IMG/VR virus record: IMGVR_UViG_3300010371_000034
Location: 1 to 64,000 of that record
DNA: 64,000 bases
Direction: 5' to 3' (one strand)
Source of the DNA: a virus
Both the position numbers and the translations under genes were made by a program. The notes below the pieces were generated by a model that did no database searches, was not told the DNA's origin, and saw nothing but the letters and a program-made list of their open reading frames with translations. Shown here one piece after another: positions 31,660-47,679 of this stretch. The stretch's first letter is position 1. Every line of letters starts with the position of its first letter.

Positions 31660-31886
31660 TTCGCCTCCGCCATGTAGACTCGCATCCCGCAGCTAACTGG
31701 TTGATTTGCGGCATCTGTGCCGGCAGTCGGGCAGCCGACGCACGGCCGCGGGCCGAAGCCTGGGTCTATCCTCGTCTGGCACTCCGACCTTCTGCACCGG
31801 ACCACTCGACCGCACGACGGGCACCTGCCGACCATGACGTCGTCGGGGTCACCTTGCGGAGCAGAGTTCGTGGTATTCCTCAGCAT
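31656..31886 (-). CDS. Small Cys-rich protein
   Basis: CPSC...CVGCP...CG. Confidence 0.5.
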   Translation of the reverse strand: MLRNTTNSAPQGDPDDVMVGRCPSCGRVVRCRRSECQTRIDPGFGPRPCVGCPTAGTDAANQPVSCGMRVYMAEAK

Positions 31887-32676
31887 GTCGATTCCTCAGT
31901 TTGTCCAGTGCGCAATGCTTGATCTGCCGCACGCGTTCCTTGGTCAGGTGCAGCGCGTCGCCCAGCTGCCGCAGGGTCTTGCCGTTCATGTAGTACCCGA
32001 CCAGTATCCGCCGCTCGACAGAGCTTATCACGCGGGAATGTAGCACCATCTCGGTCGCCTCGTAGTTGACCTTGTGCTCCTCCCCAACCGTCAGCCAGTA
32101 GTCGGCCGGCTCGTTCTTGGCGATGTCGGTGTCGTAGCAGTCCACCATCGGCGCCAGCACCCTCTCAGCGGCCTCCACAGATACCATCAGCTTCTTGCGA
32201 AGCTTTTCGCCCGCCTGCTTCCTCTTGATCAACTTCCACAGGTAGTCCGGCACCCGCACCTGGTTGTCGTGCGACGAACGCTGCCTCCGCGCCTTCAGCA
32301 TCTCCGTCGCGATAGCCTTGCTGGCGTAGGTGATGAATTTGACCGGCCTGCCGTCCTTGATGAAATCGCCCCTGTAGTTGTAGATCGCCGCTATGACAGC
32401 CAGATTGCCCTCGGACACCATGTCCAGCATCTCCTGCTGGCCGCACCTGTTCAGCCTGGTAGCTATCGACACCACCAGCGGTAGGAAGCTGACCATCACT
32501 CGGTTCCTGGCCGCGACGCCCTCGGCGGCCAGCTCGCTCAATTCGACGCACGGCCTGCCGCGCTCGCTCAGCTGCTTTTCTGCCGTCCTGCCAGCCTGCG
32601 CCTGCTCTATCAGCGGCACCAGCTGCTCCTGCGGAATCTGCTCCAGGTTGTTGAGCTCGCTCATGTACTCGCGCAT
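31849..32676 (-). CDS. Sigma70-family sigma factor
   Basis: Region 2 LPLVVSIA, DMVSEGNL, KFITYA, VRVP; region 4 TLRQLGDALHLTKERVRQI. Confidence 0.9.
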   Translation of the reverse strand: MREYMSELNNLEQIPQEQLVPLIEQAQAGRTAEKQLSERGRPCVELSELAAEGVAARNRVMVSFLPLVVSIATRLNRCGQQEMLDMVSEGNLAVIAAIYNYRGDFIKDGRPVKFITYASKAIATEMLKARRQRSSHDNQVRVPDYLWKLIKRKQAGEKLRKKLMVSVEAAERVLAPMVDCYDTDIAKNEPADYWLTVGEEHKVNYEATEMVLHSRVISSVERRILVGYYMNGKTLRQLGDALHLTKERVRQIKHCALDKLRNRHAEEYHELCSAR

Positions 32677-32704
32677 TGGTGTCCCTCTCCGTTGCGTGGA
32701 TTGG

Positions 32705-33397
32705 TTAGGTATACCCAAAATGCGGGCATATCCCACCGTTCTGCCTTTTACCCCAGTTACAGTTAGCGCACAGCACTTGAAACCCTTCAGGAAACTTATG
32801 CCTCTTTAGCCACAGGTATAAAGCACCGCTACCTATCTCCCTACGATGAACTGCGCCATCGTTTTCAACATGGTCTATCTGTAGAAACAAAACCTCCGTC
32901 TCGCCGCAGCAATTGCACCTATACCCACCATACGCGGCAAATACATCGTCCTTTAATTTCCTACCCCGTTTAATGTAATAGTCTTTGCATTGCTGGCAGT
33001 GCTTCGTTCCAGATACTATATCACTCGATCCACATTTCAGGCATTGTTTGTTTTGTAGTCGTTTCTTTCTACGTTCCTTGTGGCAATCCAAGCCTCTCTG
33101 CCGACATACCAGACACCTTTTCTTTCCCTCTGTCAATTCCCTACCACACTGAGGGCAGATTCCAGTACCAACCCTTCTCTTCTTCCTGGTATGGTAATAC
33201 TTCTTTGATTTTTGTAAGCATGATTCGCATATATCCTTGCCGTTGCTACGATCATGCGCCGTACAGCATTTTGGACATTTTCCGGCTGCCACCCGCCTAG
33301 CATATCTACCAGAGTCTCTTTTCTTTTGTTTACCTAGACAAGCCCAGCATAATCCACCTTCCCTATCAACCGACTTTCCACAGTGCAAGCAATTCAT
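32705..33397 (-). CDS. HNH endonuclease with multiple CxxC fingers
   Basis: YGGYRCNCCGE, LQIDHVENDG, QVLCANCN; low GC. Confidence 0.85.
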   Translation of the reverse strand: MNCLHCGKSVDREGGLCWACLGKQKKRDSGRYARRVAAGKCPKCCTAHDRSNGKDICESCLQKSKKYYHTRKKRRVGTGICPQCGRELTEGKKRCLVCRQRGLDCHKERRKKRLQNKQCLKCGSSDIVSGTKHCQQCKDYYIKRGRKLKDDVFAAYGGYRCNCCGETEVLFLQIDHVENDGAVHRREIGSGALYLWLKRHKFPEGFQVLCANCNWGKRQNGGICPHFGYT

Positions 33398-33493: not shown

Positions 33494-34357
33494 TCAATTT
33501 CCTCTTGAGTCGTGCAAAAGCAGAAAGGGATGAGCCGGAGGGTAAAGAATTACCGCATACGGCCCCCCTTTCTGATCTACGTGAAACGGTTCTCCGATGT
33601 TGACCGTCTTGCCATCCAGCGATAGGCATTGTTCGCACGCGTCCGCGCTGGCCAGCCAGCTGTGCCGCTTGACTCCCGCCTCTACTGCCGCCATCATCTG
33701 CCCTCCATGCACGGCGCGCGAGCCCTCGGTCGCCGCTATACGAAACGCTCGCATGGGGTCCGCGAAGATCATCCGCACCTTCTTGGCCAACAAAGCCACC
33801 GCGTCGCCCTGCGGCAAGCCCTCCCGCATCAGCCTGCGCAGGTCGTCCAGCGCATCGCCTAGCTCGCGTGTAGCCGTCTCGTTGGTCTCCCGGCAGAACG
33901 CATAGGCGGCTGCGTCGACCGCGTCCAGCACCTTAGGGTTGAACAGGTCGAACGAGAAGCCCAGGTCCTCTGTCTTGCGCTGGCCCGACGCCTTGCAGAC
34001 CAGCCGCTTGCGGACCAGCGTGAGCATTGGAGCTGACCGCTGCTCCATCCTGGGGCCAAAAATCGACTCATTGCCCGGCTGGTGCCTGCGCATGCCGTCC
34101 ATGCTCGGCGCGGGAACCCGCGGCATGTCCGCCTCGGCACGCTTGCCCAGCTTCGCCGCGATCCTGGCGGACGCCTGCACCATCCCCTGCTGCCACATCT
34201 CCAGCAGCAGCGGCTTGACGGCGTCGGCGGTCGCGCGCACCCAGCCCGACGTGTCCGGCGGCGGGTCGCCCGGCCGCACCTTTGACAGCACGTCCCGCGC
34301 CTGCTGCTGGTACAGCAGGTTGAGCAGTCGCATCAGCTTGGTCGGGTTGTTGCTCAC
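33494..34357 (-). CDS. MuF/SPP1 gp7-like minor head protein
   Basis: RAFRIAATE, WLAS..ACEQCLSLDG, PPAHP; the terminal CxC lies in the +1 frame. Confidence 0.85.
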   Translation of the reverse strand: MSNNPTKLMRLLNLLYQQQARDVLSKVRPGDPPPDTSGWVRATADAVKPLLLEMWQQGMVQASARIAAKLGKRAEADMPRVPAPSMDGMRRHQPGNESIFGPRMEQRSAPMLTLVRKRLVCKASGQRKTEDLGFSFDLFNPKVLDAVDAAAYAFCRETNETATRELGDALDDLRRLMREGLPQGDAVALLAKKVRMIFADPMRAFRIAATEGSRAVHGGQMMAAVEAGVKRHSWLASADACEQCLSLDGKTVNIGEPFHVDQKGGPYAVILYPPAHPFLLLHDSRGN

Positions 34358-34587
34358 CTATTGTTCTCATCACAGTAGACGATGTCGGGCTGCTCGGCGA
34401 CTAACTGTGCTAGAGCCACGCCCTGCTCCTCGGTCAATGTGCTCTCATATGACACCGCGATGGTCGGCGTCTCGTTGACTTCAACGTGCAGCGATATCGC
34501 CCTCACCTGCTTGCCTTCCAAGCCGAGAATCTTGGCAATCTTTGCGCCCAAAGCGTTCGCAGTTCCGGTCCTGATTATGCTCGCCAT
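34354..34587 (-). CDS. Hypothetical protein
   Basis: 77-aa ORF overlapping the MuF start. Confidence 0.55.
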   Translation of the reverse strand: MASIIRTGTANALGAKIAKILGLEGKQVRAISLHVEVNETPTIAVSYESTLTEEQGVALAQLVAEQPDIVYCDENNR

Positions 34588-34591
34588 AAAA

Positions 34592-34834
34592 TTACTTACT
34601 CAAAAATATGCCGGCTTCCACCTTCTCCAGCGCGTCGTACCATGCATCATCTGGGTCGGGAAACGCCCGGCTCACCTGCACGTCGCGCACCCAGCTGCCC
34701 CTGATCACCGTCGCCTCGATGTACCAGCCATTGGGGCTGTGCACCAGCCGGGCCATACCATATCTGCGCTGCACAGCCATCGCGGCCTTCATCCAGCCCA
34801 TGCTGTGCTTGGCTTGCAGGAACCTGGTTGTCAT
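34592..34834 (-). CDS. Hypothetical protein
   Basis: 80-aa ORF. Confidence 0.5.
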   Translation of the reverse strand: MTTRFLQAKHSMGWMKAAMAVQRRYGMARLVHSPNGWYIEATVIRGSWVRDVQVSRAFPDPDDAWYDALEKVEAGIFLSK

Positions 34835-34835
34835 A

Positions 34836-34940
34836 AGCACCCGTCGGAGGAATCGAACCTCCTGTTCGGCCTAACTTGGATGTAGGCTTAACCGCCACGT
34901 TCGCGGATCGCAGCTTTTCGGCTCTGCTGCCAGCACGGGT
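34836..34940 (-). ncRNA. tRNA-like RNA (non-canonical)
   Basis: Acceptor-like ACCCGT/ACGGGT, perfect T arm GGAGG-TTCGATT-CCTCC, three internal hairpins. Confidence 0.55.
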
Positions 34941-35016
34941 AATTGCCGACCGCGACCCCAGCTAGAGCATCGCGGTCGGCCCTCGGTGGATCGACGCGAT
35001 CCGCCGCTCCCAAGCA

Positions 35017-35199
35017 CTATCGACAGCCACCCTGTCCACCGCGATGCGCGAAATGCCCGTTGAACGGGTGCAGCACTCGGTGGACCACCCTGCAGCCGAA
35101 CCCGCCGCGGCTTCCGCCGCGACTGCAACCGGCCTCGATTCCCTGCACGGCCGCCAGCATCATCGCCAGGGCCAGCGCGAACATCACGAGAACCTTCAT
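35017..35199 (-). CDS. Small secreted Gly/Cys/Arg peptide
   Basis: Signal peptide MKVLVMFALALAMMLAAVQGIEA. Confidence 0.6.
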   Translation of the reverse strand: MKVLVMFALALAMMLAAVQGIEAGCSRGGSRGGFGCRVVHRVLHPFNGHFAHRGGQGGCR

Positions 35200-35459
35200 C
35201 ACGCTTCTCCTTGTTGTTGCTTGGCGGCCATCTCCCTGGCATGTGCTCCGCAGATGCAACCCGCCATGATGTTGCACCGGCATTCCAGCATCGCGCAGCT
35301 AGGGTTTACCATGAACGTGGTGGCGTCGTCCAACGTCACCACCAGCGCTCCATACTCGTTGATCGAGGACACAGTTCCACGGCGACCAGCGAACTCGTTC
35401 ACCCTGAGCTCGCCGTCGTCCTTGAGCACCACCCTGTCCCCGACCTTGAACGAGATCAC
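35199..35459 (-). CDS. Small SH3/KOW-like protein
   Basis: FKVGDRVVL...GRRGTV...VVTLDD. Confidence 0.55.
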   Translation of the reverse strand: MISFKVGDRVVLKDDGELRVNEFAGRRGTVSSINEYGALVVTLDDATTFMVNPSCAMLECRCNIMAGCICGAHAREMAAKQQQGEA

Positions 35460-35848
35460 GAAACAGCCTCCAGGTTGCCCGCTGCCGTCACCGGCTGCGC
35501 ATTGCCGCCGGAGAACAGGCAGTCGGGGAACGTCACGTTGCCCTGATACGTCAGTCCGTCCGCGTAGCGCAGCGTTGCGAATGCGACTATCGCTTTGGCC
35601 ACCACGCTCGGCAGGCTGACTATGAACACGTTGCCTGCCGCGTCCTGCCCTTGGCCAGTGCACGCGGCAACCGTGGCCACGTCCGGGAACCGCAGGAAGT
35701 GCATCTGTACCGGCGTCGGTGGGATGGTCACGGTGAACGTGGTACCGTCCTCGCAGGTCAGCATCATCGGCTCCTCCGCCGTCATCCGGTGGAGGAACCC
35801 GTCGCGCGATACAGACATCTTCGGGCAGTACAAGCTGACCTTCATCAT
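35456..35848 (-). CDS. Hypothetical protein
   Basis: MMKVSLYCPK; ATGA-coupled. Confidence 0.55.
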   Translation of the reverse strand: MMKVSLYCPKMSVSRDGFLHRMTAEEPMMLTCEDGTTFTVTIPPTPVQMHFLRFPDVATVAACTGQGQDAAGNVFIVSLPSVVAKAIVAFATLRYADGLTYQGNVTFPDCLFSGGNAQPVTAAGNLEAVS

Positions 35849-36849
35849 CGCACCTCGATCGGCCACCTGTGGTCGATGTTGCCGGACTCGTCGAACGGCC
35901 GCCACGAGAACCGACCGTCGTCCCCCCACCGCACCCTGCGGTAGATGCGCCCAGGCACGTCGTGGATGGTCGCGGTGGTCGAGTGGCACGACGCGCACGA
36001 CCGTTCCAATCCATTGTACCCGACCGGGAACTTGGTTTTGTCGCGGAATGGTATCGAAGTTTCCCAGTCGGAGTCGCCCTTGACCTGCTGGCGGACCTCG
36101 AACACCTGGCCATCGTTGTTGAGCAAGATGTCCAAGGCCCTGGTGCCTTCTGGGAAGCTCCACCGGATAAGCGGCGTCGGCGCGAACGCCCGCACGTCCA
36201 CCGATTGCTTCCACACGACGATCTTCTTTCCCTGCGGCACCTCGATCCTCTTCACGCTCTTGAAGGAGTGGCCCAGCATGCCGCCCGACACCGTCATCTC
36301 CGGGTGCTCGTCGTGCAGCGTATCGACCTGCATGTAGGGGATCGAGTTCATGGTGAATAGGTTCTGGTAGCGCGGAGCCAGTTGGTAGAACCACCCTCGG
36401 CCCAGCTTGACCTCCTTGGGCAGCAGCTTGGCCAAACGCTCCTGCTCAGCTTGCGGCAGCCACGGACCCGCGGCGTCGGCGCTACCGTCAGCAGTTGGTC
36501 GGCCGGGTGAGCCATCGAAAGGGGGTTGGACCAACGCCTCCCTCCCTTCCTGTATCGCTATGTGCACGTTTTCAGGCGTCGGTTCCTTGACTTTGAGCGC
36601 GCTGAACCACCCTCGGCCGTCGGGAGTCAGCACGATCACGCGGGCCGGACCCTCAAGCATCACCTCCATCGACAGCGCGCCGGTGACCGGCTTTATCTTC
36701 TGGTTGACGAACACCACCAGCGGCGTGTTGGCCTTCAGCGACTTGAGCACGGTCGGGTTCTTCTGCGGCAGGCTCAACTGCTGCTCCTGGCCGATGGCGA
36801 CTGCCACCAGCGCCAACACCGCTGCGCACGAACATAGCTTCCACATCAT
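35845..36849 (-). CDS. Exported protein with CxxCH (c-type heme-binding motif)
   Basis: Signal peptide; SCASCH near the C-terminus. Confidence 0.65.
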   Translation of the reverse strand: MMWKLCSCAAVLALVAVAIGQEQQLSLPQKNPTVLKSLKANTPLVVFVNQKIKPVTGALSMEVMLEGPARVIVLTPDGRGWFSALKVKEPTPENVHIAIQEGREALVQPPFDGSPGRPTADGSADAAGPWLPQAEQERLAKLLPKEVKLGRGWFYQLAPRYQNLFTMNSIPYMQVDTLHDEHPEMTVSGGMLGHSFKSVKRIEVPQGKKIVVWKQSVDVRAFAPTPLIRWSFPEGTRALDILLNNDGQVFEVRQQVKGDSDWETSIPFRDKTKFPVGYNGLERSCASCHSTTATIHDVPGRIYRRVRWGDDGRFSWRPFDESGNIDHRWPIEVR

Positions 36850-36907
36850 CTCACCAACCCTCCAAATGGTTGCGGGCGAGGTCCATCGAAACACTACTCC
36901 GGTTGTT

Positions 36908-37036
36908 TCACTTCCTGACTTCTTTGGGTATGCTCGGCCCGCCGTGGCAGGCGGCGCACAGCAGCTTGCCGCTGTTGTTGCGGATCAGCACGCCGCGCCT
37001 GCCGCAGTTCTGGCACTTGCCGTAGGTCGAGGCCAT
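36908..37036 (-). CDS. 42-aa Zn-finger protein
   Basis: CQNC...CAAC; upstream GGAG. Confidence 0.55.
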   Translation of the reverse strand: MASTYGKCQNCGRRGVLIRNNSGKLLCAACHGGPSIPKEVRK

Positions 37037-37037
37037 A

Positions 37038-37334
37038 TCACAACTCCATCAATTCCATTATAGCGACCAGCAGGGCCGAGGTCCGGTTGCGCCGGGTTAT
37101 GTCCTCGTCCCTGTAAAAAGGGGCGTAGAACCGCTCGCTGCCGGAGCTAGGGCCGTAGAGGACGCGGTTGGCATCGGGGGTCGAAGGCGGCACGATGTAG
37201 CCGCCTGACGCGCCGGAAGACTCCTTCAGGCTGGGCTGGACGATGACCGGCTGGGATGGTGGCGGAATCACGCCGGCGGCATATCCCTGCGTCACCAGCT
37301 CGTCGCTCAGTAGTCCTTGAACAATGACGAACAT
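37038..37334 (-). CDS. Small protein with capsid N-arm-like motif
   Basis: MFVIVQGLLS...TQGY...SLKESSGASGGYIVPP. Confidence 0.65.
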   Translation of the reverse strand: MFVIVQGLLSDELVTQGYAAGVIPPPSQPVIVQPSLKESSGASGGYIVPPSTPDANRVLYGPSSGSERFYAPFYRDEDITRRNRTSALLVAIMELMEL

Positions 37335-37447
37335 CAGGAGGCCGCCTTGTATCCCTGGGTGATGACGAAGCTGTAGACGACCGGGCCACCGGCGTACCCC
37401 TGGGAGAGCAATCTGGGCGACAACAGTCCCTGCACCACGATGCACAT
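37334..37447 (-). CDS. 37-aa peptide, paralog of the next gene's N-terminus
   Basis: MCIVVQGLLSPRLLSQGY...TQGY; TGATG coupling. Confidence 0.55.
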   Translation of the reverse strand: MCIVVQGLLSPRLLSQGYAGGPVVYSFVITQGYKAAS

Positions 37448-37448
37448 G

Positions 37449-39878
37449 TTAGGTCCTCGAAGTCGGCGCCGTTGCGCTGTCCAGCGTGAACGTCCTGACC
37501 ACCGTCGTGCCGTTGGCGGCGTACAGGGTCAGCGTGGTTCCCACCAACGTCCACTTGCCGAACCCCTGTGCGCGGGCGGCGTTGAGCGCGTCGCCCACCG
37601 TCTGCGCGGTGTTGCTGGTCGGCACCGCCTGGGTCATGTCTTGCTGCATCACGTCGCCCGGCACCGCGAACCCGGTCGCGGTCACCCAGTGGATCGCGCC
37701 GTAGGACTCGATGCTGGTGACGGCGCCCGACACGTCCGATGCCGCCGCAAGCGTGCTGCCCGGATCGTGACCCGCGAGCGTGCCCAGGTTGGTCGCCAGC
37801 GAGTTGGTCCATTGCGCGGTGCTCAGCGCCGTGGCTGCCGGTGCCCGACCGCTGATGGTGTCGTCTATGTCCGTCGCGAGCAGTAGCCCTATGCTCCCCG
37901 CCACGTTGAAGTCTCCGCCGGCCAGTAGGTCCTGCCACACGGCCGCGGCGTTCTCCGCTGCGGTCGGGGCGGTGGCACCTGGGATGGAATCGAACGGCAG
38001 TACCGCGAACGTGGTGGTGTTGTCTGGAACCACGGACCACGCCGCCACCGTGGCCACCTTGGTCGTGCCGTCGTAAGCAGTGCAGAACCGTGCCTGTCCG
38101 GCACCCGTGCCGCCCGTCAGGTAGATGATGTCGTTGGCGTAGTATCCGTCAGCGGAGCTCGCCGAGGCATCCAGCGTGATTGACGTCGCTCCGCCTGCCT
38201 GCGCCGTGTCGCTGCGGACGGTCTGCAACCCCGTGTCTGGGTCGAACGACGCCCGCGTGATGCCGCCGGCCGCTATACTTCCAACGGTGGTGATCGTGCC
38301 AGCCGTGATGTTGGTGGGCGTCGCCAGGCCCGCCTGTATCGCGGCGACGGCCGTGGCGTTGGGTGCGTTGACCAGGTCCATCTGGTCGCCCGGAACCGCG
38401 AAGCCAACAGCAGTGCTCCAAGTCGAATCTCCGTGACTCGCCAGACCGTCCAAAGTTGTTATCGTTCCGGACGCCTGCACCGGGCTTCCGACGGCGGCCA
38501 AAACCAAGGTCTCATCCGCGATGTCGTTGACAGGTAGCTTGTTGTAGATGCTGGTCAAGTGCATTTGGTCCGTCACGGTGAACACAGCCGTGGCGAAGTC
38601 AACCGTCTGTGCATACGCAGACAGGGTATAGGTGACGGTCGTTATGGTCGCCGAACCGTCGAACCTGATCTGCTCCAGCGTCGGCGTCGACCCCGGCGTG
38701 TAGGTCCAGCGATACACGCCCGTGGCCGGGTTGGTCGCGGCAGACAAATTGGCGGACAAGTCGCCGCTGACCATGCCGGTGGCTGTGAGCGTCGGCGTGG
38801 TGTCGGCATTGACCGCGCTGCCGGTCAGCGCATCATATGTACGCATCTCGACCGTGTACGTCTCATCTGGTTCGTATTGTCCGACAGTGGTCAAGAGTAG
38901 GTGCTTGCTGGCAGATTGGTTGATGGCAGCGATGTCGGCGTGAGAGGCAACCGCACCACCGACGTTGAGATTGTCGATGTATCCCGCCCGCGCACTCGTC
39001 CACTGCGCCGTGCTGAGAGCTGTTGCGGCGAGCGCCCAGTCGCCTTTGCCGTTCAGCGCGCTCGCCGCGATGCCGGCGGCCGTCAGCCAGTTGTTGGGAA
39101 TGCTCGGCAGGTTGGTCAGGTTGGTGGTCGTCGTGATGGTTCCGGCTGTGATGTTCGTGGTACTGGCGATGGTGGCGTTGGGGAAAGTTATCGTGCCCGA
39201 TGCTGACACCGTCTGCCCGTTGAGCTGCTCCGCATCACCCTTGACTAGAGCCGACGCCCCGGTGCCGCTGAAGTTGATAGGCTGCGTTGTGCCCATGTTG
39301 GCGCCCACCGTGGTGACGCTGGTGGTGGCCACACCGTTGATCTTCGCCGCGTCAGCCTGCCCCACGCCGCCCGACACGCTCAGCTGCGCCATACCTGTGC
39401 CTGCCGTGATCAATGCACCGGCTGTCGGGTTGGTGGTGCCCTTCAACCCTTGCAGCGCGAAGTTCACGTCGTAGGGGTTGACCGTCCGCAGCGGTATCGT
39501 CACGTCGCAGTTGCTCATGCCAGAGACGCCGCTGATCGATATCAGCAGGCTCTTGGCGCTGGACACCGCGAAGCGCGCGTCGGCGATCTGTATCTCGTAG
39601 ATGCCGGGATGGTTGGTGTTGTCCACCAGCTTGAACCGACACTTGGTCGCAGTCGGCGCGGCGTAGGTGCCCAGCGTCGTGATGGTCTCGATGGTCGAGC
39701 CGGCCTGGGTGTAGGTAGTCGGCGTCGCCTCGTCGTCGGCGATCGTCGAGATGATCAGGCCGGTGCTTGCGCTGGTCAGCGCCGTTATCCCATTACCTGG
39801 GTTGGCTCCGGTGGTGTCCTGCCGCAGCTTGACCCGCAGGATAATTGACGTCTGTCCGAGCGTGTAGTCGATCAGCAT
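37449..39878 (-). CDS. Large Thr/Ala/Gly-rich fibre-like virion protein
   Basis: 809 aa; internal repeats ATALSTAQWT, TNITAGTITT and GFAVPGD, twice each. Confidence 0.7.
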   Translation of the reverse strand: MLIDYTLGQTSIILRVKLRQDTTGANPGNGITALTSASTGLIISTIADDEATPTTYTQAGSTIETITTLGTYAAPTATKCRFKLVDNTNHPGIYEIQIADARFAVSSAKSLLISISGVSGMSNCDVTIPLRTVNPYDVNFALQGLKGTTNPTAGALITAGTGMAQLSVSGGVGQADAAKINGVATTSVTTVGANMGTTQPINFSGTGASALVKGDAEQLNGQTVSASGTITFPNATIASTTNITAGTITTTTNLTNLPSIPNNWLTAAGIAASALNGKGDWALAATALSTAQWTSARAGYIDNLNVGGAVASHADIAAINQSASKHLLLTTVGQYEPDETYTVEMRTYDALTGSAVNADTTPTLTATGMVSGDLSANLSAATNPATGVYRWTYTPGSTPTLEQIRFDGSATITTVTYTLSAYAQTVDFATAVFTVTDQMHLTSIYNKLPVNDIADETLVLAAVGSPVQASGTITTLDGLASHGDSTWSTAVGFAVPGDQMDLVNAPNATAVAAIQAGLATPTNITAGTITTVGSIAAGGITRASFDPDTGLQTVRSDTAQAGGATSITLDASASSADGYYANDIIYLTGGTGAGQARFCTAYDGTTKVATVAAWSVVPDNTTTFAVLPFDSIPGATAPTAAENAAAVWQDLLAGGDFNVAGSIGLLLATDIDDTISGRAPAATALSTAQWTNSLATNLGTLAGHDPGSTLAAASDVSGAVTSIESYGAIHWVTATGFAVPGDVMQQDMTQAVPTSNTAQTVGDALNAARAQGFGKWTLVGTTLTLYAANGTTVVRTFTLDSATAPTSRT

Positions 39879-40933
39879 TATAAGCTCCCCATGCCCATAG
39901 ATGACATTCCGCCAGTTGAATCATTGTCGAGATACGGCCATACCTGTGCAGTGATGGCAGCTGAACCGCCAAAACGTACACTTTTTCCTGTTCCTGTTGG
40001 CAACGTCCCAGGATTTGAGTATTTGCTCCCAAACCCACTGCTCCAGGGATAGGCTGTCACGTAGGGAGAACCCGCATGACCTACTGAAATATCAGTCCCA
40101 GCCATTGAAAACGATACGCCGTAACCTGATCCAGATGGTAACGTGCCTGGGTTAGAATACTTGGTTCCGAATCCACTTGACCACGGATATGCTGTGATAT
40201 TAGGCGAGTTATTGTGAGCCAGAGCGATATCGTTGCCCGATGGTGAAAATGATACATCCTTGCCTGCAAATCCTGATGGCAATGTTCCAGGATTGGTGTA
40301 TTTTGTTCCAAATCCACTGCTCCAGTGATACGCTGTTATGTACGGAGAGTTGGAATGTCCAATCGCCACATCATTGCCCGAAGGAGCAAATGCAATGGCT
40401 CCTCCGGTTCCAGGTAAGCCTGATACCGGATTAGCGTACTTGGAGCCGAAACCGCTGCTCCAGGGATACGCTGTCACGTATGGAGATGAATTATGTGCTA
40501 CCCCTATGGCATTGCTTGACGGGGTAAAACTAACTTTGTTCCCTTGCCCTGCCGGAAGAGTACCTGGATTGGAGTATTTGCTGCCAAAGCCTGCGCTCCA
40601 AGGATACGCCGTGACAAATGGACTGGTACCATGTGATACCGCGATATCCGATCCAGCAGGCGTAAATGATATTCCAAACGCGTTTCCTGCTGGAAGCGTC
40701 CCTGGGTTGGAGTACTTTGTTCCGAAACCACCGCTCCAGGGATACGCCGTGACAAATGGAGTGATTATATGCGCTACAGCTAAACTCGTCGCTGATAGAG
40801 AAAACCCGACACCGCCACCGGCATTGGACGGCAGTGTCCCTGGGTTAGAATATTTGGAGCCGAAACCGCTGCTCCAGGGATACGCTGTCACGTATGGAGA
40901 TGAATTATGCCCCACGACTATGTAACTCGACAT
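39878..40933 (-). CDS. Seven-repeat beta-propeller-like protein
   Basis: Seven approximately 44-aa repeats H..SPYVTAYPWSSGFGSKYSNPGTLP. Confidence 0.8.
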   Translation of the reverse strand: MSSYIVVGHNSSPYVTAYPWSSGFGSKYSNPGTLPSNAGGGVGFSLSATSLAVAHIITPFVTAYPWSGGFGTKYSNPGTLPAGNAFGISFTPAGSDIAVSHGTSPFVTAYPWSAGFGSKYSNPGTLPAGQGNKVSFTPSSNAIGVAHNSSPYVTAYPWSSGFGSKYANPVSGLPGTGGAIAFAPSGNDVAIGHSNSPYITAYHWSSGFGTKYTNPGTLPSGFAGKDVSFSPSGNDIALAHNNSPNITAYPWSSGFGTKYSNPGTLPSGSGYGVSFSMAGTDISVGHAGSPYVTAYPWSSGFGSKYSNPGTLPTGTGKSVRFGGSAAITAQVWPYLDNDSTGGMSSMGMGSL

Positions 40934-40941
40934 AAAATCGC

Positions 40942-41343
40942 CTACTTCTGTTGAGAAATACGGGTTACAGCAGCCGCTCGCCTCGGACCTTGCGGCAGCT
41001 GCTTGCACAGCCCGCGGTAAACCATCTCGACCATCATCGCCGCCGTCCTGTTGGTGATCAGGTCATGGGTTATCTTGTCGCGCATCTGGAGCTTGGCAGC
41101 GACCAGGTAGTCCTCCGGCATGTCCTTCAGAGCCGCTGCCAGCTTCTCCCGGTCCAGGCCGCGGCAGTGGCGGATGTTCTCCGGCCACTCCTTGGGCACC
41201 GACGGGTCGGCCTCCAGCTCCGCCAGCAGCGACTCGTAGTTGAGCCGGTTCAGCTCGTAGTGGTGGTGCTCCTTCTCGCGCTCCACGATGGCGCGCGCCA
41301 CCACATCGTCCTGGTAATCCTGCGTAACATGATCGTACTTCAC
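40942..41343 (-). CDS. Hypothetical protein
   Basis: 133 aa; RBS GGAGG. Confidence 0.65.
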   Translation of the reverse strand: MKYDHVTQDYQDDVVARAIVEREKEHHHYELNRLNYESLLAELEADPSVPKEWPENIRHCRGLDREKLAAALKDMPEDYLVAAKLQMRDKITHDLITNRTAAMMVEMVYRGLCKQLPQGPRRAAAVTRISQQK

Positions 41344-41355
41344 TGTCAGTCCTCC

Positions 41356-42195
41356 CTATAAGCGAGGCAGGTACCTGCGCTGCGCCAGTTGTTGGATGAA
41401 CGAAAACTGCCTGTCGAGGTGCTCCGACAAGTCGTCCGGAAGCACGCCGACCCACGACTCGCCTATGTCCGGTTCGACAACTTTGCGGACCTCGTGCAGC
41501 CCCATCCCGTAGACCGTGTCGTCTTCCTTGACCATCTGCACCACGTTGTTTGGGTCGCACGTGAACGATTCGACGCCGCACTCCTCGCACACCCGCTTGA
41601 CCGTCTCGATCGGTCGGTGGGTCAGCTCGTGGTACGGCACGATAACCAGCCTGTCCTGCAGCCCGCGCTCGAAGGCGTCTTGCAGGCAGTTGACCACGTA
41701 CCCTATCGTATGGTCGATGCTGCACAGCCGCTCCGCCCTGCCGCGGACGGTAAGCGTGCGGTAGACGTCGTTGCCCGACAGCGGGTGGTCGGTTACGAAC
41801 GACTTGCGGTATAACTTCTCGAACGACGCCACCACGTCCCTGATGTCCCGAATCGGAACTATCACCTTTATCTTGCGTCCCAGCACCGCCTCCAGCAGCT
41901 CGATCTTGGACAGGTGGCCGCGGCTTTTGTCGAATACATGCTTGCCCAGCGACAGTTCGCGTGCGTAGAACCCCTCAACCATCCCGTGCATCGACGCCAC
42001 CACGCGCGGCTCGATCTGCTTCAAGCCTTGGGCGATGAACGTCGGGCGCTGCATCCACACGTCACGCACCGTGCACAGCAGGTCCAGCAGCCCGTCGTTG
42101 GTCGGCGTGCAGTGGTGTCGCGGGCACTGCGCAAGCAGGTTCTGCAGCAGCGTGCTGCCCGACCTCGGCATGCCGGATGAGAAGAATATCGTCAC
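41356..42195 (-). CDS. Sulfotransferase family protein
   Basis: 5'-PSB motif GMPRSGSTLL; 3'-PB motif IRDIRDVVASF. Confidence 0.88.
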   Translation of the reverse strand: MTIFFSSGMPRSGSTLLQNLLAQCPRHHCTPTNDGLLDLLCTVRDVWMQRPTFIAQGLKQIEPRVVASMHGMVEGFYARELSLGKHVFDKSRGHLSKIELLEAVLGRKIKVIVPIRDIRDVVASFEKLYRKSFVTDHPLSGNDVYRTLTVRGRAERLCSIDHTIGYVVNCLQDAFERGLQDRLVIVPYHELTHRPIETVKRVCEECGVESFTCDPNNVVQMVKEDDTVYGMGLHEVRKVVEPDIGESWVGVLPDDLSEHLDRQFSFIQQLAQRRYLPRL

Positions 42196-42204
42196 GCTAT
42201 CTCC

Positions 42205-42756
42205 TTAAACCCGCTCCACCTCGGACACCTTGCCATCGTCCGAGTGCCTGACCACCAGTCGCGTGGGCCTCTCCATCTTCTCCATCCGCTTGACCAGCCC
42301 CGCCAGCGTCGCGATCATCTCCCTATTGGACCGCTCGATCGCACCCATCGTATCGGCGTTGGCCTTGACGAAGGACTTGACCAGCTGCTCGATCGACTCC
42401 GACAGCGCGATCCCTTGGCTTTCGATCGCGTCGACCACGCCTGAGAAATCCACCACGGCGTCTGCCGGCTTGACCGTCACCTCGTTGACCGGCTGCATCA
42501 CCGCAATCGATGCGCTCAGTTGCTTGATCGCCTCCAGCACCACCCCCTGGTCCACCGCTACGCGCTCGTTGTGGAGCAGTACGTCGGCCAATCCCTTCTC
42601 GATACCGTCGGCTAAGCTCTGCTGGTCCACCACCGGCCGGTCGGCCTGGTATTCAAGTGCGTTCAGGCGCTTGACCAATGGCTGGAGCACCCGCTCCTTG
42701 ATCGAGTCCACCAGCGCCTTGACCTTGACGCCGTCGCTGACGGTAATCGCGCTCAT
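42205..42756 (-). CDS. Hypothetical helical protein
   Basis: Coupled to the portal stop; RBS GGAGG. Confidence 0.6.
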   Translation of the reverse strand: MSAITVSDGVKVKALVDSIKERVLQPLVKRLNALEYQADRPVVDQQSLADGIEKGLADVLLHNERVAVDQGVVLEAIKQLSASIAVMQPVNEVTVKPADAVVDFSGVVDAIESQGIALSESIEQLVKSFVKANADTMGAIERSNREMIATLAGLVKRMEKMERPTRLVVRHSDDGKVSEVERV

Positions 42757-45700
42757 AGCACCCCCTCCAGCATCTTGTCGATCTCCTGGCGACAAGCCGC
42801 GTACTCGTCTTGCTCCTTCAGCCGCGGCCGCAGTCGCTTGCCCGCCAGCGCCCCGTGCACGCCCCTGATCGTCTCGGCGACTGCAACCACGGCCGCGATG
42901 TTGCCCGGTATCGGCATCGTCGCCAGCATGCCCACGGCCATCGCCAGCGCTCCCTTGCGCCCGTAGCGGCTCTCAAGCGACAGCCACTTGTCGGCAAGCC
43001 ACCTGCCGGCCTGCTGGACCGACAGCGCCTTGGCCCGCATCTCTCTGGTGGCCGGGTAGACGCGGTCCCGCTTCTCCGCATCGTACAGCTCGCGCAGGTG
43101 GAACTGCACCTCGACGACCATGCCGCAGGGCGTCCGGTAGTTGCGCAGCATGTCCCGGTAGCCGCCCTGGAGCGGCTGCGCGAACCGGTCCTTCTGCCGC
43201 ACCAGCACCAACCGCCCGTCGATCTCCTCGGCCGCGTCCCGCAGCTCTTGCTCGGTGTCTCTAACCACCGACGCCCGCACCACGTCCAGCAGCCGCGACC
43301 AATCGCCGCCGTAGTCCCGCTCGACCTTCTCCTCGGCCCGCTCAAGCGACTTGATCGGAACCTGCACCGCGCCTTCGACGCCTTGCAGCGCCCGGTCCAG
43401 TTCGCCCTGCGCCTGGACCACCAGCGCGTACAGCTCCTCCGGCTTGTCCACCGGCTGCTTGACCATCTCGCCGCCACGCTGCTCGACCTCGGCCAGGATG
43501 TCCGGCCAGGGGGAGCGGCCGTCTATCGCCCGGTCGTCCACGTACAGGTCCGCCACGACCTTGGCGCTGGCTCCCGCGGGCTGGTCGCTGTTGGTGTTGA
43601 TCGAGTCGTATTCTATCCCGCTGCCGTCCAGCTGGTCCTTGATCGCCTGCACGTCGCCGCGGGTCGTCCACACGATGATCTTCCATCCCCGGTTCCGCAG
43701 CGCCGCCAGCGCCTCCCGTGCCCCGTCGCGGACCTCGCCGAAGTGCCCCTCGCCCCGCCAGCCGTCGTACTCCAGGATCGTGCCGTCCAGGTCCACGGCC
43801 ACGGTCTGCTGGTGCTTGTAGACGGTCCAGCCCTTGCGCACCAGCTGCTTGCTCGGCTTGCCGTTTGGCTTGTCAATCTTGCCGCCGTCGGCCTGCGCCT
43901 CTTCGACTTCTTGCGCTTGCTCGTTCGCGTCGTCGGCCTTGCCGCTGTCGCTGACTTCCTCGCTGGGCAGGTCCTCGTTTGACTCCACCGTGCCCAGCTT
44001 GTCGGAGTCTTTGCCGGCTGCCATCGACTCGGAGTACTGCCGCACAAGGTCGGTCAGGTCGTCCCCCTTCTCCTCGACGTTGACCGGCGCTGGCATCGGA
44101 CCGCCCGGACCCTGGACCCACGGGTTGTCGCCGCCCATCGCGTATGGCTTGCGGCCGCGCAGCACCCGGACCTCGTTGGTGGTGATCGCGGGCGGGCTGG
44201 CCTGCATGTCCACTTGGAGGTCGCTGTTGACCTGCGCGGGGTCTGCCGGCGTCAGGTTGTCGTACCATATCCTTGCCTCGCGGACGCCGCCCGACCCGCC
44301 GTGGCCCGACCCGGTCAGACTGGACCACGCGGGAGTCTCCTCGTCGAACTCCTTGGCAAGGTGCTTGGTCTCGACTTCGCCCTCCTGGGCCAGCAGGGGG
44401 TTCAGGCCGTTCTCGCAGTTTCCAGTAACGTGAACCTTGCCATTTCTGCGCACGAAGAACAGACCTGTCGGCACCGTTACACACCACACCGTGCCGTCGT
44501 ACTCAACGGTGCTGCGCATGTCTGGTGATAGCACAACCTCTTGCCTGGTTGATACGTCAACGCGGTACGCTACCTTCCTGTCGCTGCGTGGGTCTGGTTG
44601 TACACATACAGTTGCAGAGAATCCACACTTGACTGCGATCTCTGCAACGTCATCAGCAAGTTGCTTGCTAACCGTCTTGTAATTGGAGCTAGAGTTGCCG
44701 GTGTTCTCGCAGTCCATCCATGCGTGCCCGTCTCCTTCCATAAGAGCATCAAACAGTACCCTCAAGTCCTCAGCCGACCATGACTTTACCTCTTCAGGAA
44801 CGCGCTTGTTCTGGGAACCAATGCCTAGTGATACTAAGTAGTCATAGATTCCCTTGTCGCTCGCTTTCCAAGTGTGGCAACTGGTGTCTCTAGGGTCAAC
44901 CTTGTCTGTCCACTTTAGTGGCAGCGCAAGGATTCCTGCCTTTACTGACTCAAACGTTCTTGTTGATTTCTCTGATTGCGTAATACATATTCCCCACCCT
45001 CCGTTCGTCCTGTCGCAAAGATGCCCCTCACTCAGGTAGAGGCCAAGAAACCGCAACCACACCTTCCTGTCTACGCACCTGTCGTCCAACTCATGCACTA
45101 TATTCCTGCTACCGCATGGGTTGTATGATGGGAATGACACGTACTTCGGCGGGTCAGTTGCTCCTATTAGCGGTGCCGACCTCTTTATCCTGTACGTCGT
45201 GGCAGGCGTCATGTCGTCTATCTTGATCGTTTCCCAGGGGTAGTTCAGGTGTTTCCTTGACGCAGCCGGGAACCGCTGCAAGTGTACCCGATGCCCTGGA
45301 GTCATGCAGGCGTCAACGCGCTGCCCTTGCCACAGGTGCATCGGCCCCTTATACGGCTCAACGACGATCCTAGACGGTTTGTGGTACACCATGCTCTGGG
45401 ATGCTTGATCGTAGCAAGCGACCACAGTATCGTCAGTCAACTCCCAGCACTTCTTCCAACCACAGTCAGTCAAGCACTCCGTGTCATCATCCAAGCACCA
45501 GCCGGCCAGCGTCGCCAGCACCGAGCCGAACGTCATGTCTTGCACCATGCCAAGTGCAGCTTGAGGCGTGCCAAAGCCGGCGCAGATCGCCTTGGCCATC
45601 TGGTCGAACCCCTCCATGTAGGCCATGTCGGTCGGGGAGAACGACAGCGGGGTGACCACCGTGCCGCTGGGGGTGAACAGCGGCTTGCCCACGTTGAACT

Positions 45701-46769
45701 CGCCCTGGTGCTTCTGGGCGATCTTGGCCTCCCAGCGCGATATCATGTAGTCGTCGGGATCGGTGTAGCCTGGCGGCATCGACACCCAGAACTCAGGCCG
45801 GGCCATGTTGATGAACTGCGACCAGCGGGACCGTGCTATCGACTCCTCCGTGTCGATCCACCTTGACAGCGACCACAGCTTGCTGTATCCGTCCAGCTTG
45901 TTGACGGGAGACTTGAACAGATGGATGATCACATCGTCGATGGGAATCTTGAGCATGCCGGCCGAGCCCATGCCGCCCCACGGCCGTACCTCCAGGTACT
46001 CGATAAGCCGGTCAGCGTCGGGATGCTCCGGGTCGACGTGCTTGTGGCCGCCGGTCCTTGGCCACACCCAGTGCGACGGGATCACCCACCGCTCGCACGG
46101 CCTGCCGAACCTGTTGCGCACCTTCCACTCGTAGGCCACACCGCACAGGAACTTGAACATCCGCAGCTCGTACATGTAGTCGAAGTGCGTATCAACGGGA
46201 TTGGGGTTCTGGATCAGTGAAGGGAGGAGGTGCCTGCGCTCTATCGGCTCAAGCTCCTCGTGCGGCTTGAGCACGCTGAGCGCCTTGGAACGGTACTCGC
46301 CGATGGTGAGGAACGAGCTGTTGCTGCCGGACAGCTTCCGAGCCGCGTCGTAGTTGGAGTAATCCACCCAGTCGCCGCCGGCCGGCGCCTGCGGTTTGGC
46401 CCCCCACTTGCCCGGCTGGCCTTTGTGGATGTCTGATCCCACGTGGCCAGTACCACCGAAACCCCTACCGGTGGCGTTGAGCAGCGACCGCTCGCACGCC
46501 TTGACCGTCCTGCCCGGCACGCCGGAGTCATGCACCCAGGCGACGTTGGGGTAGACGCTGGACAGCTTCATGCAGTTGGCGTGGATGACGACGTAGGTCC
46601 AGTCCAGGTAGTGCTGCACCTGGGAGATGCGGTCCTGCGACCAGCCGCCGGGATATCCGGTGCCATGCGCGGCCGGGAACAGGCGGCCCAGTATCCGCTC
46701 GCCCGGCGTGGCGCTCTTGCTCACCGCGCCAGCCGATGCCCTGGTCAAGTGCCTGGCCGATTTAATCAC
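42753..46769 (-). CDS. Portal protein with intein and C-terminal HAD-like and RelA/SpoT-like domains
   Basis: Portal motifs LIQNPNP, DGYS, FINMARP, GEFNVGKP, ICAGFGTP, TTNEVR; then VDLDGT...YVDDRA; then IKSLERAEEK...DVVRAS...GYRD...EVQFH. Confidence 0.9.
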   Translation of the reverse strand: MIKSARHLTRASAGAVSKSATPGERILGRLFPAAHGTGYPGGWSQDRISQVQHYLDWTYVVIHANCMKLSSVYPNVAWVHDSGVPGRTVKACERSLLNATGRGFGGTGHVGSDIHKGQPGKWGAKPQAPAGGDWVDYSNYDAARKLSGSNSSFLTIGEYRSKALSVLKPHEELEPIERRHLLPSLIQNPNPVDTHFDYMYELRMFKFLCGVAYEWKVRNRFGRPCERWVIPSHWVWPRTGGHKHVDPEHPDADRLIEYLEVRPWGGMGSAGMLKIPIDDVIIHLFKSPVNKLDGYSKLWSLSRWIDTEESIARSRWSQFINMARPEFWVSMPPGYTDPDDYMISRWEAKIAQKHQGEFNVGKPLFTPSGTVVTPLSFSPTDMAYMEGFDQMAKAICAGFGTPQAALGMVQDMTFGSVLATLAGWCLDDDTECLTDCGWKKCWELTDDTVVACYDQASQSMVYHKPSRIVVEPYKGPMHLWQGQRVDACMTPGHRVHLQRFPAASRKHLNYPWETIKIDDMTPATTYRIKRSAPLIGATDPPKYVSFPSYNPCGSRNIVHELDDRCVDRKVWLRFLGLYLSEGHLCDRTNGGWGICITQSEKSTRTFESVKAGILALPLKWTDKVDPRDTSCHTWKASDKGIYDYLVSLGIGSQNKRVPEEVKSWSAEDLRVLFDALMEGDGHAWMDCENTGNSSSNYKTVSKQLADDVAEIAVKCGFSATVCVQPDPRSDRKVAYRVDVSTRQEVVLSPDMRSTVEYDGTVWCVTVPTGLFFVRRNGKVHVTGNCENGLNPLLAQEGEVETKHLAKEFDEETPAWSSLTGSGHGGSGGVREARIWYDNLTPADPAQVNSDLQVDMQASPPAITTNEVRVLRGRKPYAMGGDNPWVQGPGGPMPAPVNVEEKGDDLTDLVRQYSESMAAGKDSDKLGTVESNEDLPSEEVSDSGKADDANEQAQEVEEAQADGGKIDKPNGKPSKQLVRKGWTVYKHQQTVAVDLDGTILEYDGWRGEGHFGEVRDGAREALAALRNRGWKIIVWTTRGDVQAIKDQLDGSGIEYDSINTNSDQPAGASAKVVADLYVDDRAIDGRSPWPDILAEVEQRGGEMVKQPVDKPEELYALVVQAQGELDRALQGVEGAVQVPIKSLERAEEKVERDYGGDWSRLLDVVRASVVRDTEQELRDAAEEIDGRLVLVRQKDRFAQPLQGGYRDMLRNYRTPCGMVVEVQFHLRELYDAEKRDRVYPATREMRAKALSVQQAGRWLADKWLSLESRYGRKGALAMAVGMLATMPIPGNIAAVVAVAETIRGVHGALAGKRLRPRLKEQDEYAACRQEIDKMLEGVL
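44418..45497 (-). mobile_element. Intein (360 aa) with LAGLIDADG endonuclease in portal
   Basis: W|CLDDDTECLTDCGW ... TPGH ... FLGLYLSEG ... ALMEGDG ... VWCVTVPTG...TGN|C; lower GC. Confidence 0.92.
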
Positions 46770-46826
46770 GCCGCATCCCCTGCGCTCCTGTTGACTCCAG
46801 TCAGCGGCCCCACGCGGCCGCGCAGA

Positions 46827-47057
46827 TCACTGCACCTGCTTCGCGCCCACCACCGCCCTGTCCACCACCTCGTCAAGCGCCCGCACATCACGCTCCAGCT
46901 CTCGCAGTCGCTCGTCGTTCCTGTCCTCGCGGTCCGCCCGCCGCACGTGCAGCCACCACAGCGCGGGCAGGCTGGCCGACAGTAGCGCCGCCACCAGGCT
47001 GAGCAACCCGCAGCAGACGGCGAGCACCAGTATCGTGAGGGCCGGCTGATCGTTCAC
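46827..47057 (-). CDS. Small membrane protein
   Basis: Long hydrophobic N-terminus. Confidence 0.55.
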   Translation of the reverse strand: MNDQPALTILVLAVCCGLLSLVAALLSASLPALWWLHVRRADREDRNDERLRELERDVRALDEVVDRAVVGAKQVQ

Positions 47058-47348: not shown

Positions 47349-47537
47349 TCACTTCTCCCTGTCCGGCGTCCTCGCGCTGCTGCGCAGGTCGGTCAGCTCC
47401 GGCCCGTCGATATCCACGTCCGCCGCGGTCTTGGCCCGCGCGTCGGAGCAACCCGCGCACACCTCGGTGTCGGGAATCGCCTCAATCCTGCCCCGCAGAA
47501 TCTTCTTACCGCACCTGCTGCATGTTCGATCCATCAT
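47349..47537 (-). CDS. TraR/DksA-type C4 zinc-finger protein
   Basis: CSRCGKKI...RIEAIPDTEVCAGC. Confidence 0.8.
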   Translation of the reverse strand: MMDRTCSRCGKKILRGRIEAIPDTEVCAGCSDARAKTAADVDIDGPELTDLRSSARTPDREK

Positions 47538-47679
47538 CAGTCTCCATACAACGCATTGCATATGCCGCTACGATGTCGCTGTCGCCCGATTTCTCCAACT
47601 CCGCGACAGCGACCACCAGGTTCTGCAATTCCTGCCTCACTATGGCGCAGACGGCGGCGAGGTCTTCGGCGGTAAGCAT
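47506..47679 (-). CDS. Hypothetical 57-aa protein
   Basis: MLTAEDLAAVCAIVRQEL; RBS GAGGTG. Confidence 0.45.
   Translation of the reverse strand: MLTAEDLAAVCAIVRQELQNLVVAVAELEKSGDSDIVAAYAMRCMETDDGSNMQQVR

Follow-up and report, generated by a model that had tools for sequence, protein, structure and literature searches.

The viral DNA analysed here, positions 1 to 64,000 of IMG/VR record IMGVR_UViG_3300010371_000034 (hereafter the window), contains a portal gene whose single open reading frame (ORF) continues beyond the portal into a predicted two-enzyme cargo, a small HAD phosphatase domain followed by a RelA/SpoT homologue (RSH) domain of the Tas1/Apk1 kind. In order, the chain comprises a PF04860 portal split by an intein, an acidic linker, the HAD domain, the RSH domain, a tail module and 26 more residues (Table 1). 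Judged by the assemblies, the fusion of portal and cargo is real. That the portal-borne cargo is delivered into the host, where the RSH domain would make an alarmone and the HAD domain would limit the product, is a reading with about an even chance of being correct. The general kind is already known from effector enzymes on portal and MuF proteins and from phage-borne Tas1-like synthetases; no earlier description was found of the ordered HAD-RSH cassette, of its apparent replacement of immunity and hydrolase genes, or of the shared tail module. The record, recovered from soil metagenomes, is a single contig of 78,777 bases (~94% complete according to CheckV), its source is a tailed soil phage, and nearly all genes of the window lie on the minus strand.

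The original prediction placed the portal, HAD and RSH parts in the same frame, and the ORF that joins them is indeed uninterrupted over 1338 amino acids (aa). Its GTG start reads V-I-K-S-A-R-H-L, and the long form of the ORF is taken as real because this start aligns with the M-x-L-K-S-[AS]-R-H-L N-termini of the homologues P0005 and P0021 (P and L numbers are handles for related proteins and loci); an identical protein with a start 15 codons later is present on 2 contigs of the protein collection. One 9,643-base Logan contig from a first soil run covers positions 42000-47000 with zero differences. From a second soil run, one contig extends from the downstream gene through the RSH domain, the HAD domain and the linker into the conserved C-terminal part of the portal (to 44091), and a further contig continues from 44064. 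The sequence produced by this separate assembler has no differences or indels over any junction, an agreement that amounts to a second assembly and not an independent sample, as both runs may be source samples and contigs, not raw reads, were compared. Independent support for a real fusion comes from relatives, such as P0004 from other data, in which a 57% identical HAD domain is fused in frame to a 51% identical portal. A search ahead of the RSH domain for internal starts in frame and behind a usable ribosome-binding site found none, and the coding strand inside the ORF holds no promoter-like or terminator-like sites. The original prediction had named a stop or an assembly chimera between portal and cargo as grounds for rejecting it; neither appears in the ORF or in the Logan contigs. 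That the fusion is nevertheless a chimera, or that the extra domains are inactive remnants, is extremely improbable: the metagenomic origin and the reliance on contigs from runs that may be source samples leave some room for it, whereas the identical sequence from a separate assembler across all junctions, the homologous in-frame fusions in other samples and the conservation of all catalytic residues of the HAD and RSH domains argue against it.

Table 1. Positions of the portal-cargo ORF, its parts and other features in the window
Feature	Position	Strand	Basis or remarks
Portal-cargo ORF, 1338 aa	42753..46769	-	Uninterrupted; GTG start; TGA stop 42753-42755
Portal N-terminal part, aa 1-424	45498..46769	-	PF04860, 72.4 bits vs cut-off 39.1; phrog_2662, phrog_12
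Intein with LAGLIDADG endonuclease (predicted), aa 425-784, 360 aa	44418..45497	-	Precise insert relative to P0004, P0005, P0021
Portal C-terminal conserved part, aa 785-900	44070..44417	-	Conserved in P0004, P0005, P0021 and 12 IMG/VR portals
Acidic linker, aa 901-975	43845..44069	-	Composition; ends D-K-P-N-G-K-P-S-K
Capless HAD phosphatase (predicted), BT0820-like, aa 985-1102	43464..43817	-	phrog_1238, NF046079, 2obb, motifs I-IV
RSH 3'-pyrophosphokinase domain (predicted), Tas1/Apk1-like, aa 1103-1250	43020..43463	-	Sequence, profile, AlphaFold2, Foldseek
Tail module (helix, P-x-P-G-N turn, helix), aa 1251-1312	42834..43019	-	60-78% identical copies elsewhere
Downstream ORF, 183 aa, helical	42205..42756	-	ATG overlaps portal stop (ATGA) behind GGAGGGGG
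Sulfotransferase	41356-42195		PF13469, 2.1e-17; missing from every related locus
Separate MuF-like head protein, 287 aa, without toxin domain	33494..34357	-	PF04233, 30.2 vs cut-off 29.6 bits; PHROG head morphogenesis
Sigma-70-type factor	31849-32736	-	phrog_351, 1.8e-21
S78-like prohead protease polyprotein, 1190 aa	27359..30931	-	tblastn with protease parts of P0007 and P0092; protease aa ~53-223
RMF modules on protease polyprotein	29429-29545 (over Pfam cut-off); 28814-28963, 27986-28090 (weaker)	-	
Two neighbouring major head family ORFs, 525 and 368 aa	25102-26679, 23921-25027	-	Both phrog_10
70-aa ORF with weak DksA/TraR-type zinc-finger match	47349-47561	-	2kq9, 0.0036
Large terminase, 836 aa	49822-52332	-	Terminase profiles in two blocks, ~aa 86-390 and 504-827

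The RelA/SpoT-like domain had been proposed from its motifs (IKSLERAEEK at aa 1139, DVVRAS at aa 1162, KDRF at aa 1193, GYRD at aa 1203 and EVQFH at aa 1220, together spanning 43098-43355), and both profile searches and structure prediction return it along with the HAD domain. Its best solved relative in a phmmer search of the PDB is Tas1 (6ox6; 3.3e-7), and a profile of 40 RSH relatives again recovers Tas1 (2.6e-22) ahead of SaEAS (5.1e-5) and RelSeq (7e-5), with CapRel absent among the sequence matches of the family profile at E<=0.01. In sequence the domain resembles Tas1 more than it resembles housekeeping RSH or small alarmone synthetase (SAS) enzymes. An AlphaFold2 model of a 365-aa piece has a predicted local distance difference test (pLDDT) score of 88-98 over the RSH part (aa 130-260 of the piece), and a Foldseek search with the model returns RelP, SAS1, Tas1, CapRel and Rel at ~3e-7 to 1e-5 with probability 1.0 (CapRel at rank 8, 9.7e-7); as modelled, the nucleotidyltransferase fold of RSH enzymes and small alarmone synthetases is present. 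With a threshold as loose as E<=10, the Pfam family RelA_SpoT (PF04607) does not match the window itself; it matches 21 of 68 mid-sized RSH relatives (best 5.2e-8, 33.6 bits against a cut-off of 27), so the link to that family is transitive only. In the numbering of the 365-aa piece, K167, K175, D189, R192, R222, G230, Y231 and E247 are invariant in the 40 RSH sequences, and K167, K175, D189, R192, G230, Y231 and E247 are invariant in the 68 relatives as well. With the basic syn1 (K-x3-R-x3-K), the Mg-binding Asp of syn2, the G-Y of syn3 and the catalytic E-x-Q of syn4 all intact, pyrophosphate transfer from ATP to a 3'-OH is predicted. The Tas1-like RSH family is large, and an exhaustive search gathered 1735 cluster representatives at E<=0.001.

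The HAD domain likewise carries the motifs that were first noticed, VDLDGT (aa 992; 43779-43796), WTTRG (aa 1034), a lysine (in SAK) and YVDDRA (aa 1076). It matches phrog_1238 at 6.9e-21, and among NCBIfam models it scores best against the BT0820 family NF046079 (1.4e-11, profile positions 2-112 of 137), whose equivalog cut-off it fails (44.9 versus 165 bits); by sequence it is a relative of the BT0820 family and not an equivalog. The PDB entry 2obb (BT_0820) is matched by phmmer at 2.8e-7, with ~31% identity in the fold alignment. Members of this family (2obb, NF046079, phrog_1238) share with the window's domain the small capless HAD architecture and the motifs DxDGT, T/S, K and DD, whereas in the window the HAD domain is one part of a longer chain and is coupled to an RSH domain. 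All 24 aligned HAD domains (the window's and 23 related ones) retain motifs I-IV (DxDGT, T, K, DD). A full-text literature search for the BT0820 family name found no paper.

The HAD domain is N-terminal to the same kind of RSH domain in 23 further proteins gathered, mostly adjacent, and in most of these only the RSH N-terminal helices lie between the HAD domain and the RSH core. The architectures include a 384-aa stand-alone protein (P0014), a 2095-aa protein with MuF, HAD, RSH and ART-PolyVal (L002), a 1744-aa protein with 2H, HAD, RSH and MuF (L003), and, as the longest carriers, polyvalent chains of >4000 aa with MuF, ART-PolyVal or 2H. On a FastTree phylogeny built from 174 RSH domains, 4 changes suffice to explain the HAD label, compared with 21.9 after shuffling, a result that shows joint inheritance of the pair and nothing more, as related rows share labels. 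When species-representative genomes were searched with an alignment of the HAD-RSH pair, the matches listed were all HAD-only. As an observation in its own right, an 898-aa phage protein (L011:5471-8164) combines an RSH domain with InPase (PF18823, 2.1e-42), another pairing of a synthetase with a phosphohydrolase.

Loci that lack the HAD domain have a different layout. A conserved ORF of 56-86 aa stands right after the RSH gene in 25 HAD-less IMG/VR loci and an HD hydrolase of 192-198 aa is present in 22; loci with the small ORF, often with the HD hydrolase, include L009, L013, L016, L019, L021, L024 and others. The carriers in these loci are not MuF proteins by a local test, and the layout resembles the set of three genes, for toxin, immunity protein and hydrolase, described for Apk2. 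L016 is the cultured Bordetella phage vB_BbrM_PHB04 (MF663786, 94 kb), whose RSH domain is 37% identical to that of the window and is likewise encoded at the portal, in the gene directly after the portal gene; there, however, it belongs to a separate 493-aa protein with no HAD domain, and a 70-aa ORF and then a 192-aa HD hydrolase are present. Neither the small ORF family nor the HD hydrolase has a homologue in the 78.8-kb genome or at the HAD-RSH loci L002 and L003, and HD_4 and MazG (PF03819) searches of the genome gave no match. Neutralisation of the synthetase by the HAD domain gains indirect support from the fixed order in which the pair travels and from the lack of these immunity and hydrolase genes at its loci, a sample of 3 that is too small for statistics.

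The carrier is a portal protein by its PF04860 match, which passes the gathering cut-off, and by its place in the packaging module with the large terminase gene upstream. Among the ORFs scanned, which do not cover the genome exhaustively, no second match to a portal model was found, apart from that of the MuF gene to the MuF part of the portal-labelled phrog_2662. The N-terminal part of the portal is ~50% identical to P0004, P0005 and P0021, and these three homologues lack the insert that follows it, at the same alignment column. The insert begins C-L-D-D-D-T and ends V-T-G-N before a Cys+1 (C-E-N), contains two LAGLIDADG-like blocks and a weak LAGLIDADG_3 match, has Gly in place of the usual penultimate His, and coincides with a dip in GC content; from these sequence features it is classed as a LAGLIDADG-type intein. 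Splicing would leave the N-terminal ~540 aa to form the portal. Past the portal core the acidic linker that had been predicted is present, as judged by composition, and D605, P607, N608, G609, P611 and K613 (P0004 numbering) are invariant in 4 aligned portals directly before the variable cargo.

That cargo varies among close relatives. Portals of the same clade carry the HAD domain alone (P0004), an Acb1-like 2H phosphoesterase (P0005, P0021), an RSH domain (P0080), 2H and RSH together (P0121) or a C-terminal ADP-ribosyltransferase (ART) exoenzyme domain (L074:1714-4002; PF03496, 4.2e-17), and many same-clade portals in IMG/VR end at ~480-510 aa and are cargo-free. Portal-RSH fusions occur elsewhere in at least 8 cases, and the same kind of RSH domain is found on unrelated PF06381 portals (L030, L038, P0051, P0096, P0098, P0102). 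Since RSH domains ride on two unrelated portal families, their fusion to portals arose more than once and is not peculiar to the window. Species-representative genomes scanned with the portal alignment yielded no relative.

The hydrophobic tail noted in the original prediction is real and proved to be a separate conserved module, found on otherwise unrelated portals, S78 prohead proteases, ART, NUDIX and 2H proteins. It stands at the N-terminus of the S78 prohead proteases P0092 and P0007, and it occurs on the ADP-ribosyltransferases P0067 and P0115, on the NUDIX proteins P0103, P0142 and P0151, and on P0021. The consensus (~55 aa) reads A-G-x-W-L-A-x-K-W-x-x-L-E-x-R-Y-G-R-K ... P-x-P-G-N ... 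A-E-x-I-R-G, with 19 columns invariant in 11 sequences, and AlphaFold2 models it as a helical hairpin with a long first helix (pLDDT 85-90). The genome contains a single copy; no Pfam family matched the module and a protein atlas search with it gave no usable match. As its company consists of virion-internal proteins and effector enzymes, the most economical reading, and the most likely one, is a shared address or anchor for procapsid-internal proteins. A membrane hairpin is doubtful and not favored; the Kyte-Doolittle maximum is 1.71 over 19 residues, and the P-x-P-G-N turn falls mid-way.

The domain boundaries had also been proposed to fall at Lys junctions, a suggestion that the sequences back in part. 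LVRKG follows the D-x-PNG-x-P-[ST]-K sequence kept in 4 of 4 portals, and RAKA occupies the position, 8-10 residues upstream of the tail module, at which 10 of 17 proteins have K/R-G, mostly (E)KG. MVKQ, on the other hand, is no mark of a processing site, because it is part of the [KR]-Q-P motif that opens the RSH domain even in non-phage, signal-peptide-bearing relatives. The sequences at LVRKG and RAKA keep the idea of cleavage at Lys junctions alive, and the S78-like protease polyprotein encoded in the window could be the enzyme that processes the portal cargo, if processing occurs.

Comparison with known systems places the chain near several of them. Apk2 enzymes are MuF-fused (p)ppApp synthetase toxins of temperate phages, neutralised by IapK/Tis1 and by the hydrolase Aph1 (PMC10083569; PMC12226406, citing Bartoli 2023). 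The window resembles these loci in having a Tas1-like RSH domain at the C-terminus of a phage head protein in the packaging/head module, possibly with an enzymatic partner that undoes the product. It differs in that the carrier is a PF04860 portal while MuF is a separate gene, in the HAD domain fused directly upstream of RSH, in the lack of an IapK/Tis1-like small ORF or an Aph1-type HD hydrolase, and in a syn3 of G-Y-R-D instead of GxN. Tas1/Apk1 itself (6ox6), which Pseudomonas aeruginosa uses as a type VI effector, is nearest in sequence among solved structures, ranks among the top fold matches, and has syn1, the syn2 D-x-x-R-x-[ST] and the syn4 E-x-Q in common with the window; unlike the window's domain, it is delivered by PAAR and the type VI system, reads G-Y-S-G-V-N where the window has G-Y-R-D-M-L, and is countered by the binding immunity protein Tis1. 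Fusions of portal and MuF proteins to PBECR, 2H and InPase, and of RelA/SpoT to MuF, are described in the available text of Iyer et al. 2017 (PMC5512222), where injection is predicted. Their polyvalent proteins share with the window's portal (HAD, RSH and tail) the arrangement of several effector domains per chain among virion genes, although neither a portal-RelA/SpoT fusion nor a HAD-RelA/SpoT pair is mentioned in that available text. A 2025 survey of delivery domains in the Apk1 family lists Sec, LXG, XopAD, MuF, DUF4157 and PAAR/Rhs, and the portal is not among them (PMC12691689).

A sequence of events can be proposed for the preferred reading, delivery of a synthetase together with its phosphatase. 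Because the C-termini of PF04860-type portals face the capsid interior, where they form the crown, the extension would hang from the crown into the capsid interior, in up to 12 copies per virion as expected from portal architecture. The cargo would be freed inside the prohead by the S78-type protease, or would stay tethered, and would enter the cell together with the DNA. Once inside, the RSH domain would transfer pyrophosphate from host ATP onto the 3'-OH of purine nucleotides, yielding (p)ppApp and/or (p)ppGpp, and would thereby rapidly lower host metabolism, transcription and ATP-dependent defences. The HAD domain would work on that nucleotide pool too, serving as an internal brake or detoxifier that limits or edits the product, a role that in HAD-less relatives may fall to the HD hydrolase (Aph1/SAH type) together with the small immunity protein. 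Packaging and delivery of up to 12 copies are consistent with the portal topology, the recurrent cargo fusions, the presence of an S78-like protease and the proposal of Iyer et al. 2017.

Several considerations weigh against this reading. To our knowledge, no HAD enzyme hydrolyses 3'-pyrophosphorylated nucleotides, and a literature search for links between HAD phosphatases and alarmone synthetases found no paper. The apparent mutual exclusion of the HAD domain and the immunity or hydrolase genes is drawn from 3 HAD-RSH loci in IMG/VR and is not significant by itself, and in the FastTree phylogeny the window's RSH domain forms a long branch that falls outside the main HAD-linked cluster. The product is also not readable from the sequence: the syn2 R-A-S is Apk-like and the syn4 F-H is Apk2-like, and the syn3 G-Y-R-D-M-L agrees with neither published type, GxN in Apk enzymes or the guanosine-type SxH in RSH enzymes. 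Published Apk signatures are a syn2 of the R-Y-T type, a syn3 G-x-N and a syn4 Y-H, and swapping motifs does not switch specificity (PMC12226406); the Apk1/EAS family includes (p)ppApp-specific, (p)ppGpp-specific and promiscuous enzymes (PMC12691689). With respect to delivery, cargo left covalently on the portal cannot leave the capsid, and packaging, cleavage and ejection are themselves only inferred. Finally, measured enzymes of the Apk1/EAS family perform ~10^5 turnovers per minute (PMC12691689), and by a rough estimate 12 such molecules could drain the ATP of a cell in minutes; as this would harm the phage too, the RSH activity would have to be tuned.

The alternative to be taken most seriously, though rather unlikely, is that the cargo is not delivered at all and acts late in the producing cell on free portal subunits, the portal being a convenient late-expressed carrier. 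Alarmone or nucleotide pools would then be reset for late expression and packaging, or defences that sense late proteins would be blunted. Such a role would suit the Acb1-like 2H enzymes on close portal relatives, which would be useful if late proteins trigger nucleotide-signalling defences. It also recalls the T7 portal, which itself binds both RelA and SpoT and reduces the level of alarmones as infection proceeds (PMC13483052), and the Lys cleavage sites are only putative. However, RSH, ART and 2H domains also ride on MuF and giant polyvalent proteins near virion genes, an arrangement seen with injected effectors (PMC5512222). Prohead proteases, which act inside the capsid, have the tail module too, and a 1:1 fusion to a structural protein would be a poor way of dosing a cytoplasmic enzyme.

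Two further explanations concern the target of the enzymes and the beneficiary of the system. The RSH domain could be a tRNA-directed toxin like CapRel, with the capless HAD domain, of a fold like that of polynucleotide kinase (PNK) phosphatases, removing 3'-phosphates from RNA ends. Capless HADs often act on large substrates, a structure search with the HAD part returned PNKP-phosphatase-like viral proteins, phrog_415 is weakly matched, and CapRel is among the Foldseek matches of the RSH model. The family profile nevertheless lies far nearer Tas1/Apk1 than any other solved RSH enzyme (5e-5 or weaker) and does not recover CapRel at the threshold given above, and characterised members of the Apk1/EAS family use free nucleotides (PMC10083569, PMC12691689), all of which make this explanation improbable. 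We attach a similarly small chance to a polymorphic toxin of the MuF type that benefits the lysogen or the phage population through bacterial or phage antagonism, with the downstream 183-aa ORF as its immunity protein. The position of this ORF is that of IapK/Tis1 in Apk2 loci (PMC10083569): it overlaps the portal stop and is translationally coupled behind the strong ribosome-binding site GGAGGGGG. It is, however, long and helical and unlike the small ORFs of 56-86 aa that follow HAD-less RSH genes, and no relative of it was found in related loci, nor any Pfam, PHROGs, NCBIfam or PDB sequence match. A predicted complex of the RSH domain with this ORF scored 0.00, which with the uncertain fold of the partner speaks neither for nor against binding.

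The genes around the portal add to this picture. The sigma factor, the DksA/TraR-like ORF, the RSH domain and the RMF modules together fit a stringent-response theme; the presence of RMF on a capsid-internal protease polyprotein is in itself unusual. The protease part of that polyprotein was located with P0007 and P0092, the latter of which matches Peptidase_S78. Between the portal gene and the separate MuF gene lie ~8.4 kb (34358-42752) with no counterpart in related phage loci. Within this interval, the large ORFs at 39878-41008 and 37449-39878 (searched against Pfam, PHROGs, NCBIfam and PDB) and at 35845-36894 had no family match. The sulfotransferase gene raised the possibility that the RSH and HAD domains make a 3'-phosphate donor like 3'-phosphoadenosine 5'-phosphosulfate (PAPS), a candidate that was dropped because the sulfotransferase is absent from all related loci. 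Upstream, GC content falls to 0.54 at 50-52 kb, and the terminase gene, like that of the portal, may be interrupted by an intein or by some other insert.

Taken furthest, the available evidence can be combined into a single proposal, which we regard as decidedly unlikely in its full form, that the HAD-RSH unit is a self-contained two-enzyme cassette with its own chemistry, loaded on the portal and co-injected with an RMF kit, the tail module serving as a procapsid address label. In one version the cassette would be a self-limiting generator of an alarmone pulse, in which the phosphatase removes the product of the synthetase and no immunity gene is needed; in another, pyrophosphorylation followed by trimming would amount to a net 3'-kinase that makes a different, 3'-phosphorylated nucleotide. 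If this were true, the virion would inject a ready kit imitating both the stringent response and ribosome hibernation, the latter through the three RMF modules on the protease polyprotein. Phage-borne alarmone synthetases have so far been found on MuF carriers, and their packaging and injection are still treated as unsettled where they are described (PMC10083569). Fused to a portal, an enzyme has a set copy number (at most 12) and a set location (the capsid interior, at the DNA exit), so that packaging and ejection become directly testable. The HAD-RSH cassette would add a class of phosphatase to the partners of toxic alarmone synthetases and could reveal a new nucleotide product, and the tail module is a candidate capsid-targeting tag that, if confirmed, would be usable to find virion cargo in metagenomes.

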